64,000 bases of DNA, taken from the NCBI RefSeq assembly GCF_041886205.1, contig NZ_CP169029.1. One strand, written 5' to 3'. The position numbers were made by a program. This document shows, piece after piece, positions 41,729 through 44,700 of this stretch (the first letter of the stretch is position 1; the number at the start of each line of letters is the position of its first letter). Origin of the DNA: Escherichia coli. GTDB lineage: Bacteria; Pseudomonadota; Gammaproteobacteria; Enterobacterales; Enterobacteriaceae.

Positions 41729-44700
41729 TTAAATTTTCTACCGCGTACTGCACTTCACCCGCAGTTACCGCTTCGCACTCACATACCAGGCTACGGTGCA
41801 GACGGCCTTCGCTCAGCCAGGCAGGCGTGCGATCGCCATGACGATAAACCGCAGAACCGCGCAGCGGGGCAGGCAGGGAGATGACTTTACGCAAGGTAAC
41901 TTCAGCGGGTTCTTGTGAACCAGGCAGTGCCAGATCGGCAGTCGTACAGGGGCGCGTGTTGCCCAGTTTGCGGCATACCGCGTCGGTAGCCCATTCAGCC
42001 ATCAGCCGATAGGTCATCAGTTTGCCACCGGTGATGGTGATAAATCCGTCCAGACCATCGCGTTCAGCATGGTCGAGCAGCACGATGCCACGGCTGACGT
42101 TACGTCCGCTCGGGTCGTCATCGCTGGCAACCAGCGGGCGCACGCCAGAATAGGCCCGCAAAATGCGCGTTTTCGCCATCACGGGGGCCAGTTTTTCCCC
42201 TTCACGCAGCAGAATATCAACCTCTTCTGCCGTCACTCGATTATCGTCAATCTCGTTGTAATCAATACGTAAAGAGGTGGTACCAATCAGCGAAATGGTA
42301 TCGCCAGGCACCAGAATATCGGCGTCGGAAGGTTTACGGCAGCGGTTGATCACATGCTGGTTAATGCGGTGATCCATGATCAGCAGCGATCCTTTCGCCG
42401 GGAACATGCGAATGCGCAGATCGGCATATTCGGCAATGTGTTGCCCCCAGATCCCAGCGGCATTAACCACGACAGGTGCATGAAGGGCCTGAGTTTCGCC
42501 GGTGAGATGGTTACGTACACGAACACCGCACACCGTCGCGCCTTCACGAATCAGCCCCGTGACTTCATGAGCGGTAAGGATAACGGCACCGTGTTCTTTG
42601 GCATCCAGCATGTTTGCTGCGGTCAGACGAAATGGATCAACGGTGCCATCCGGAACTTTCACCGCGCCAATCAGTGCCGGGTTAACGGCAGGTTCGATAA
42701 TGCGTGCTTGCTGCGGGTCTATAGCTTCTGCGCTGATCCCTGCTTCTTCGCAGGCGCGAATAAAAGTGGCCTGGAAGGAGAGGTCATCTTCCGGCAGGGT
42801 GATAAACAGGCCGTTGGTTGGTTCAACGCAGTGACGTGCAATGCGTTTCAGGATCTGGTTTTCACTAATGCATTCGCGGGCCGATTCCGCATCGGTTACC
42901 GCATAGCGCGCACCGCTGTGCAGCAGGCCGTGGTTACGCCCGGTGGCACCGGTTGCGATGTCGTGGCGCTCAACCAAAATCACGCGCAGCCCGCGCAGGG
43001 CACAGTCGCGGGCAATCCCGGCTCCCGTTGCGCCGCCGCCAATGATAATCACGTCACTTGATTGCGAGTCGCGAGTTTTCATTGTTATCCCTCTGAAGTT
43101 CGTTTTTTACCATTTAGCCATAGTAAAAACATGAATTGTTTGATTTCGCGCATATTCGCTCATAATTCGAAAGTGAAACGTGATTTCATGCGTCATTTTG
43201 AACATTTTGTAAATCTTATTTAATAATGTGTGCGGTAATTCACATTTAATTTCTGAATGTTTTCTTAACATCGCGGCAACTCAAGAAACGGCTGGTTCTC
43301 CCACAGAATCAGGCTGTTAATCATAGATAAGACCACGGGCCACGGAGGCTTTCAATGTTGAGTATTTTTAAACCAGCGCCACACAAAGCGCGCTTACCTG
43401 CTGCGGAGATCGATCCGACTTATCGTCGATTGCGCTGGCAAATTTTCCTGGGGATATTCTTTGGCTATGCGGCTTACTATCTGGTTCGTAAGAACTTTGC
43501 GCTTGCTATGCCTTATCTGGTTGAGCAGGGATTCTCACGCGGTGATTTAGGTTTTGCCCTTTCGGGGATCTCGATTGCTTATGGATTTTCGAAATTCATC
43601 ATGGGTTCGGTATCGGATCGCTCGAATCCGCGCGTTTTCCTGCCCGCAGGTTTGATTCTGGCGGCGGCAGTGATGTTGTTTATGGGCTTTGTGCCATGGG
43701 CGACGTCGAGCATTGCAGTGATGTTTGTACTGTTGTTCCTCTGCGGTTGGTTCCAGGGGATGGGATGGCCGCCGTGCGGTCGTACTATGGTGCACTGGTG
43801 GTCGCAGAAAGAACGTGGCGGCATTGTGTCAGTGTGGAACTGTGCGCACAACGTCGGTGGTGGTATTCCGCCGCTGCTGTTCCTGCTGGGGATGGCCTGG
43901 TTCAATGACTGGCACGCGGCGCTCTATATGCCCGCTTTCTGCGCCATTCTGGTGGCATTATTCGCCTTTGCGATGATGCGCGATACCCCGCAATCCTGTG
44001 GCTTGCCGCCGATCGAAGAGTACAAAAATGATTATCCGGACGACTATAACGAAAAAGCGGAACAGGAGCTGACTGCGAAGCAAATCTTCATGCAGTACGT
44101 GCTGCCGAACAAACTGCTGTGGTATATCGCCATCGCCAACGTGTTCGTTTATCTGCTGCGTTACGGCATCCTCGACTGGTCACCGACTTATCTGAAAGAG
44201 GTTAAGCACTTCGCGCTGGATAAATCGTCCTGGGCTTACTTCCTTTATGAATATGCAGGTATTCCGGGCACCCTGCTATGCGGCTGGATGTCGGATAAAG
44301 TCTTCCGTGGCAACCGTGGGGCAACCGGCGTCTTCTTTATGACACTGGTGACCATCGCGACTATCGTTTACTGGATGAACCCGGCGGGCAATCCGAACGT
44401 CGATATAATTTGTATGATTGTTATCGGCTTCCTCATTTACGGCCCTGTGATGCTGATCGGTCTGCATGCGCTGGAACTGGCACCGAAAAAAGCGGCTGGT
44501 ACGGCAGCGGGCTTTACCGGTCTGTTTGGTTACCTGGGCGGTTCGGTGGCGGCGAGCGCGATTGTTGGCTATACCGTGGACTTCTTCGGCTGGGATGGCG
44601 GCTTTATGGTAATGATTGGCGGCAGCATTCTGGCGGTTATCTTGTTGATTGTTGTGATGATTGGCGAAAAACGTCGCCATCAGGAATTACTGCAAAAACG

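Follow-up and report, generated by a model that had tools for sequence, protein, structure and literature searches.

At class II CRP promoters, of which galP1 and melR are classical examples, the activator site lies near -41.5 and overlaps the -35 position. Within the glp regulon, glpD and glpFK carry tandem 20-bp operators for GlpR, a repressor of the DeoR type, as does glpT-glpA, and these match WATGTTCGWTAWCGAACATW, the GlpR consensus reportedly given by Zhao et al. in 1994. The closest described system is the glpTQ-glpACB control region of Escherichia coli K-12 (Larson, Cantwell and van Loo-Bhattacharya, 1992; Yang, Gerhardt and Larson, 1997), in which the promoter and leader of glpA carry four GlpR operators, CRP has its site at the glpT promoter, and IHF sits in the leader of glpT. 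In EHEC, CRP-cAMP gives a DNase I footprint upstream of glpT on AATGTGTGCGGCAATTCACATT, protecting 25 bp from -30 to -52 (Kurabayashi et al., 2017; PMC5352689), and in crp and cyaA mutants no expression of glpT could be detected (PMC5352689). At glpTQ, RegulonDB lists 21 binding sites, which belong to five factors (PMC4280137), and an NsrR ChIP-seq peak falls in the same spacer in strain CFT073 (PMC5320621).

The window analysed here (the whole stretch of E. coli DNA, 64,000 nucleotides) contains this locus. ORF calling delimits a spacer of 272 bp at 43083-43354, between glpA, which starts at 43082 on the minus strand, and glpT, whose ATG is at 43355 on the plus strand. A preliminary description made from the sequence alone had drawn the divergent glpACB/glpTQ spacer with precisely these limits, and both NCBIfam and RefSeq agree with it. 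The neighbouring genes are likewise identified by NCBIfam equivalogs, with GlpB (904.1 bits) and GlpC (764.8 bits) downstream of glpA and GlpQ (709.2 bits) after glpT (Table 1). Of 5426 complete E. coli genomes, 5419 contain a match to a 472-bp query spanning the spacer, and in every case annotated glpA and glpT flank it. The spacer is the control region from which glpTQ and glpACB diverge in E. coli. An Rfam search of the region matched no family; at permissive thresholds it returned one 16-bit match inside glpA (E = 0.46), which is not a credible RNA family.

Differences from the K-12 locus are allelic only. The glpA-proximal 153 bp (43083-43235) are identical to K-12 MG1655, and the 7 differing positions among the 272 are all on the glpT side: a T for C at 43236 and six further changes at 43253, 43293, 43301, 43305, 43326 and 43351. 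As a whole haplotype the promoter allele is rare, identity of at least 99% over the 472-bp query being found in only 7 of the 5419 matching genomes. The T/C difference at 43236, a common polymorphism, falls within the N6 spacer of the CRP site, which is not contacted; about 1868 of 5419 complete E. coli genomes have a match to the 37-bp stretch of the window that surrounds this position.

Table 1. Features of the glpA-glpT control region (window coordinates)
Feature	Position	Strand	Basis
glpA CDS	41454..43082	-	ORF; NCBIfam NF008313 equivalog, 1108.8 bits; RefSeq annotation under match
GlpR operator, +33..+52 of glpA (P1), glpA leader	43095..43114		14/20 to GlpR consensus; coordinates as relayed in PMC3050690
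Candidate glpA P2, TATGG (43122-43118) and CTAAAT (43117-43112), extended -10	43105..43122	-	Comparison of 36 Enterobacterales
GlpR operator, -8..+12 of glpA (P1)	43135..43154		15/20, best in spacer; coordinates as relayed in PMC3050690; 91%, most conserved long block
FNR-like dyad TTGAT-TTCG-CGCAT, centre 43146.5	43140..43153		7/10 to TTGAT-N4-ATCAA; published FNR motif
GlpR operator, -28..-9 of glpA (P1)	43155..43174		Footprint coordinates as relayed in PMC3050690; only 10/20; 80% conserved
Dyad TGAAA-cgtga-TTTCA, TGAAAcgtgaTTTCA	43174..43188		Gap block 85% conserved
GlpR operator, -60..-41 of glpA (P1)	43187..43206		13/20; footprint coordinates as relayed in PMC3050690
CRP-cAMP site, symmetric 22-mer ATGTGTGCGGTAATTCACATTT	43226..43247		9/10 core and 15/22 extended to the CRP consensus (TGTGA-N6-TCACA); conservation; published EHEC footprint
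glpT -10 hexamer TAACAT	43266..43271	+	In conserved block TTAACATCGCGGC; 91% identical across 15 relatives
IHF-protected region, +15..+51 of glpT	43292..43328	+	Yang et al. 1997 coordinates as relayed in PMC3050690, with glpT +1 = 43278
Conserved block GGCCACGGAGGCT with glpT Shine-Dalgarno GGAGG (43344-43348)	43338..43350	+	96% identity across 15 relatives; surrounding leader 39%
glpT CDS, glycerol-3-phosphate:phosphate antiporter, first gene of glpTQ	43355..44713	+	ORF; NCBIfam NF008433 equivalog, 974.8 bits

The CRP site and the glpT promoter

The CRP core comprises a left half-site TGTGC (43229-43233), an N6 spacer GGTAAT (43234-43239) and a right half-site TCACA (43240-43244), and its dyad centre is at 43236.5. 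The preliminary description had called a high-quality CRP site at 43229-43244 and proposed comparison with published footprints. The call was correct to the base, and the published CRP footprint maps onto it and not elsewhere: the protected EHEC sequence aligns with window positions 43225-43246 with a single difference, the T for C at 43236 (PMC5352689). The flagged dyad is the already known, footprinted activator site of glpT. With a probability of about 93%, a CRP-cAMP site of the glpT promoter within the glpTQ-glpACB control region is the best explanation of the dyad; here the sequence, gene identities, site positions, statistics and conservation come from the present analysis, and protein binding and crp/cya dependence from the cited papers.

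A GlpT motif pattern recovered 120 loci from a species-level genome collection, 60 of them with both glpT and glpA present. TGTGC-N6-TCACA is found 98-120 bp from the glpT ATG in Escherichia, Citrobacter, Lelliottia, Enterobacter, Pluralibacter and Shimwellia, with eight variants of the N6 spacer (GGTAAT, GTTAAT, TGCGTT, TGTAAT, GTTGAT, GACATT, GATGTT and GCTATT). Sixteen sequences were aligned, from Escherichia, Citrobacter, Enterobacter, Lelliottia, Superficieibacter, Shimwellia and Pluralibacter. Identity of the 15 relatives to the window is 97% in the left half-site and 99% in the right, compared with 66% in the N6 spacer, 51-59% in the flanks and 67% over the whole spacer between the genes.

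Judged by its spacing to TAACAT, the glpT transcript probably starts at A 43278, which would give the CRP dyad the class II position of -41.5. In the numbering of PMC5352689 the start is 2 bp upstream of this, at 43276, and the CRP centre hence at -39.5, not -41.5. Genome-wide TSS tables (Kim 2012, Conway 2014, Cappable-seq and SMRT-Cappable-seq) held no usable entry for glpT or glpA. A generic sigma-70 scan of the spacer recovered neither known promoter; activator-dependent promoters escape such scans. The only candidate that it produced, TTGAAC-18-AATAAT on the plus strand (43198-43227; 9/12, with 0.7 expected by chance), is not regarded as evidence.

The glpT promoter resembles class II CRP promoters in several respects: the dyad would lie about 41.5 bp upstream of the predicted start, there is no usable -35 hexamer (TCACAT is 20 bp from the -10), and dependence on crp and cyaA is absolute (PMC5352689). 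However, the left half-site is TGTGC and not the expected TGTGA, the non-consensus C being conserved across genera and kept in 15 of the 16 aligned sequences, and glpT is additionally repressed at a distance by GlpR. An IHF-like core, AATCAGGCTGTTA (WATCAR-N4-TTR), occurs at 43307-43319 and is conserved in Escherichia only (31% in other genera).

GlpR operators over the glpA promoter and leader

When the consensus was checked on K-12, the glpD upstream region gave a 20/20 match with a tandem 14/20 copy 20 bp on, and the glpFK upstream region a series phased at 20 bp, in which matches of 15/20 and 14/20 are separated by 20 bp. The spacer contains four matches of at least 13/20, at 43095-43114 (14/20), 43135-43154 (15/20), 43187-43206 (13/20) and 43227-43246 (14/20). 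Only 0.19% of 272-bp segments in the 64 kb reach four such matches, and for a sequence with the composition of the spacer itself the cluster has P = 0.008.

The operators of Larson (1992) are relayed in PMC3050690 as -60..-41, -28..-9, -8..+12 and +33..+52 of glpACB. If the glpA +1 is set to 43146 (promoter P1), three consensus matches fall exactly on the relayed operators -60..-41, -8..+12 and +33..+52. A numbering reference near 43105/43106 was rejected, as it fits one of the four relayed operators and 43146 fits three. The operators beginning at 43095, 43135 and 43155 are in one 20-bp register, and the one at 43187 is offset by 12 bp. The -28..-9 operator overlaps the P1 -10 hexamer GAATAT (43157-43152, minus strand); the -8..+12 operator includes both the P1 start (43146) and the FNR-like motif. 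Going by the title of Larson's 1992 report, GlpR operators are said to occur inside the glpA coding region too; sought there by consensus, they gave best matches of 12-14/20, no better than background. Unlike glpD and glpFK, glpT-glpA has 15/20 as its highest operator score, and on the published coordinates, as relayed in the secondary source, the core promoter of glpT is free of operators; repression of glpT therefore works at a distance.

The preliminary description had named as possible GlpR operators several partial dyads containing TTCGA or TGAAA, for example around 43160-43200. That interval does overlap two operators (43155-43174 and 43187-43206), but the best matches, 43135-43154 and 43095-43114, lie outside it. 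The motifs themselves are present, as the dyad TGAAAcgtgaTTTCA and as TTCG at 43145, 43155 and 43166, but TGAAA/TTTCA falls mostly between operators, in the 12-bp gap that is the -35 region of glpA P1. A repeat finder (seed 6, minimum 8 nt) reported neither the TTCG motifs nor the TGAAAcgtgaTTTCA dyad as inverted repeats. A weak CRP/FNR-like element has its centre at 43186.5 (-40.5 of P1) and takes its left half, CGTGA (43179-43183), from that dyad, and GTGATTTCATGCGT (43180-43193) repeats TTGATTTCGCGCAT (43140-43153), 40 bp away, at 10 of 14 positions.

Other readings of the CRP dyad

It is barely credible that TGTGC-N6-TCACA is a chance match with no regulatory role. The core match is not significant at window scale, where cores with at most one mismatch are as frequent as in shuffles (the 64 kb contain 3, where 1.84 are expected, and 29 of 100 shuffles have at least as many). 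Yet the match is in the right spacer, where a 9/10 core anywhere in 272 bp of this composition has P = 0.0092; its half-sites are conserved while the N6 spacer and the flanks vary; and the published CRP-cAMP footprint and the crp/cyaA dependence of glpT refute the chance reading (PMC5352689). Conservation of the site is stronger evidence than the core-match statistics. Compatible with the main explanation, but improbable, is a dual function, in which the dyad is also a weak GlpR operator (43227-43246) at which GlpR and CRP compete. The 20-mer concerned, TGTGTGCGGTAATTCACATT, owes its 14/20 score, one of only 21 in the 64 kb, partly to the resemblance of the CRP and GlpR consensuses (ACAT ends), which inflates it. 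It is exactly 40 bp, or two operator lengths, from the operator at 43187-43206, but the intervening 20-mer (43207-43226) scores 5/20. The conserved C of TGTGC fits the CG core of GlpR operators, but the G that follows it is T in Citrobacter and the right half is without a CG core. Orthologous 20-mers reach 13/20 in Lelliottia and in Enterobacter sp. BIGb0383; secondary sources, including PMC3050690, give four operators, none of them here.

Less improbable, but still rather unlikely, is that the same CRP site serves both operons and activates glpACB as well, in a class I-like manner, from -90.5 of the glpA start at 43146. The geometry holds, 43236.5 being 90.5 bp from 43146, and in Enterobacteriaceae some 90 bp separate the CRP site from the conserved block near glpA, with 91-94 bp between the two CRP-like sites in more distant Enterobacterales. 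However, the classical positions are -92.5 or -82.5, and -90.5 misses their helical phase by about 2 bp.

Mode of action in the main explanation

In the main explanation, CRP-cAMP bound at its site, predicted to be at -41.5, brings RNA polymerase to the TAACAT -10, so that glpT expression needs cAMP-CRP. GlpR occupies a cluster of four 20-bp operators (43095-43206), which covers the promoter and leader of glpA at a distance of 20-130 bp on the upstream side of the CRP site, and represses both operons until released by glycerol-3-phosphate. Repression of glpT at a distance involves, following the literature, looping assisted by IHF, which bends the DNA in the glpT leader. FNR, acting on the glpA-proximal part of the spacer, provides anaerobic induction.

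The FNR-like dyad and a candidate second glpA promoter

An FNR(D154A) footprint of 70 bp, farther upstream of glpT, includes TTGAT-TTCG-CGCAT as an FNR motif, and this site has been proposed as a remote glpT enhancer at about -130 (PMC5352689). Among the FNR ChIP peaks listed for an hns/stpA deletion strain, one is at glpT/glpA (PMC3688515, supplement). About 1.4 matches as good as the E. coli dyad (7/10) are expected by chance per 272 bp, and judged from the E. coli sequence alone the site is not significant. The orthologous element scores 9/10 in 20 more distant Enterobacterales.

Sequences from 36 Enterobacterales were anchored on the FNR dyad and compared ungapped on the glpA sense strand; the species are related, and the counts that follow are therefore not independent. 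The right half of the dyad, ATCAA, is invariant (36/36). It is followed by 14 variable columns of constant length and then by T (36/36), R, T (36/36), G (34/36), n, C, y, n, A (33/36), m and T (35/36); seven bases past this last conserved T, an A is present in 33/36. With the dyad at -41.5, the conserved columns become T-17, T-15, G-14, A-9, T-7 and A+1. They point to a candidate second promoter of glpA, P2, with an extended -10 and with A 43105, at a distance of 41.5 bp from the centre of the FNR dyad, as its predicted start. P2 appears to be conserved across Enterobacterales.

That the dyad at 43140-43153 is the -41.5 activator of P2, and not mainly a remote glpT enhancer, is a tentative reading, with the odds somewhat against it. 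As at class II FNR promoters, where the dyad is at -41.5, the distance from the glpA dyad to a conserved A is 41.5 bp, and an extended -10 motif, TRTGn, likewise conserved, follows the dyad 24 bp downstream. In contrast to such promoters, the dyad in E. coli matches at only 7/10, the hexamer CTAAAT is without the usual A at -11, and the glpA start according to the published operator numbering (43146), as relayed in the secondary source, is inside the dyad and not 41.5 bp downstream. Were P2 the promoter served by FNR, P1 would be a younger one, confined to Escherichia and Citrobacter, because conservation of its -10 hexamer GAATAT does not extend beyond genera like these two. Eiglmeier and colleagues reportedly analysed FNR-dependent promoters in 1989, and P2 may already have been described there.

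The locus was expected to serve mainly as a positive control, and the known glp control region is confirmed, with the architecture expected of it: a reading of the sequence made with no tools gave the exact position of a footprinted CRP site and the right names for the operons on either side. GlpT is one of two routes of fosfomycin entry, and mutations in crp, cyaA, glpT and promoters lead to resistance (PMC4790336; PMC5352689). In the window both CRP half-sites and the -10 hexamer are intact, and therefore no altered expression is predicted for its promoter allele. The only point that may add to knowledge is the order-wide pairing of an FNR dyad with an extended -10 upstream of glpA; if P2 is a true promoter, the GlpR operators at 43135-43154 and 43095-43114 would cover its FNR site and its start.

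A candidate second promoter of glpA

Upstream of glpA, the distances from the FNR-like dyad to two further conserved elements are constant in the 36 Enterobacterales compared (taken from among loci L007-L123 of a species-level genome collection): a TRTGn-xxxAmT motif lies at 24 bp and an A at 41.5 bp. From sequence, this arrangement suggests an FNR class II, extended -10 promoter of glpA with a start near 43105 (candidate P2), which differs from the start at 43146 (P1), the one that fits the published operator numbering. The dyad is also one copy of a direct repeat; the copies are centred at -41.5 of candidate P2 and, for the one farther from glpA, at -40.5 of P1. 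The P1 transcript could fold into an AU-rich hairpin at a short inverted repeat, whose arms are 90% complementary and separated by a 6-nt loop (TTAGCC). These arms flank the -10 element of candidate P2.

Repeats and conserved elements of the glpA-glpT spacer, in window coordinates
Feature	Position	Strand	Sequence	Remark
Inverted repeat, 10 nt	43104-43113 / 43120-43129		TTTTTACCAT / ATAGTAAAAA	glpA leader of P1
FNR-like dyad, TRTGn-xxxAmT motif and conserved A	43105-43153	minus		36-species comparison
Direct repeat, 14 bp	43180-43193 / 43140-43153		GTGATTTCATGCGT / TTGATTTCGCGCAT	10/14 identical, copies offset by 40 bp
GlpR operator	43187-43206			one of four published operators
CRP site	43227-43246			glpT promoter
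Conserved block	43338-43350		GGCCACGGAGGCT	includes glpT Shine-Dalgarno sequence

Variation and conservation on the glpT side

All seven spacer differences between the window and K-12 fall on the glpT side (43236-43351), and none was found in the 153 bp adjoining glpA. Four of the seven (43293, 43301, 43305 and 43326) lie inside the IHF-protected region (+15 to +51 of glpT), outside the IHF-like core. The window haplotype is rare: of 5419 E. coli genomes, only 7 reach 99% identity or more to it over 472 bp, whereas the T at 43236, taken singly, is common in the species. Within the glpT leader, the conserved block shows 96% conservation across genera, compared with ~39% for the remainder; GGCCAC, upstream of GGAGG, is also part of it. 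Locus L110 (named E. coli strain SCPM-O-B-8794 at NCBI) is its own species representative in the genome collection. The first 120 residues of its GlpT are identical to those of the window, and its glpT promoter segment is strongly diverged and E. albertii-like, with TAACAT (the glpT -10 hexamer) and both halves of the CRP site intact.

The CRP site and its counterparts

The CRP site matches the GlpR operator consensus at 14 of 20 positions and lies exactly 40 bp from GlpR operator 43187-43206; the non-consensus C of its TGTGC half-site is retained in 15 of 16 aligned sequences. One possible reading is a weak dual site for CRP and GlpR; the other is a mere likeness of the two motifs. While E. 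coli has the glpT-proximal site only, the spacer of more distant Enterobacterales contains two CRP-like sites 91-94 bp apart (11 loci; Yersinia, Serratia, Dickeya, Pectobacterium, Brenneria and Proteus). The glpA-proximal site of the pair is near-perfect, with ~60 bp separating it from the FNR dyad. Pasteurellaceae carry two perfect CRP cores ~52 bp apart.
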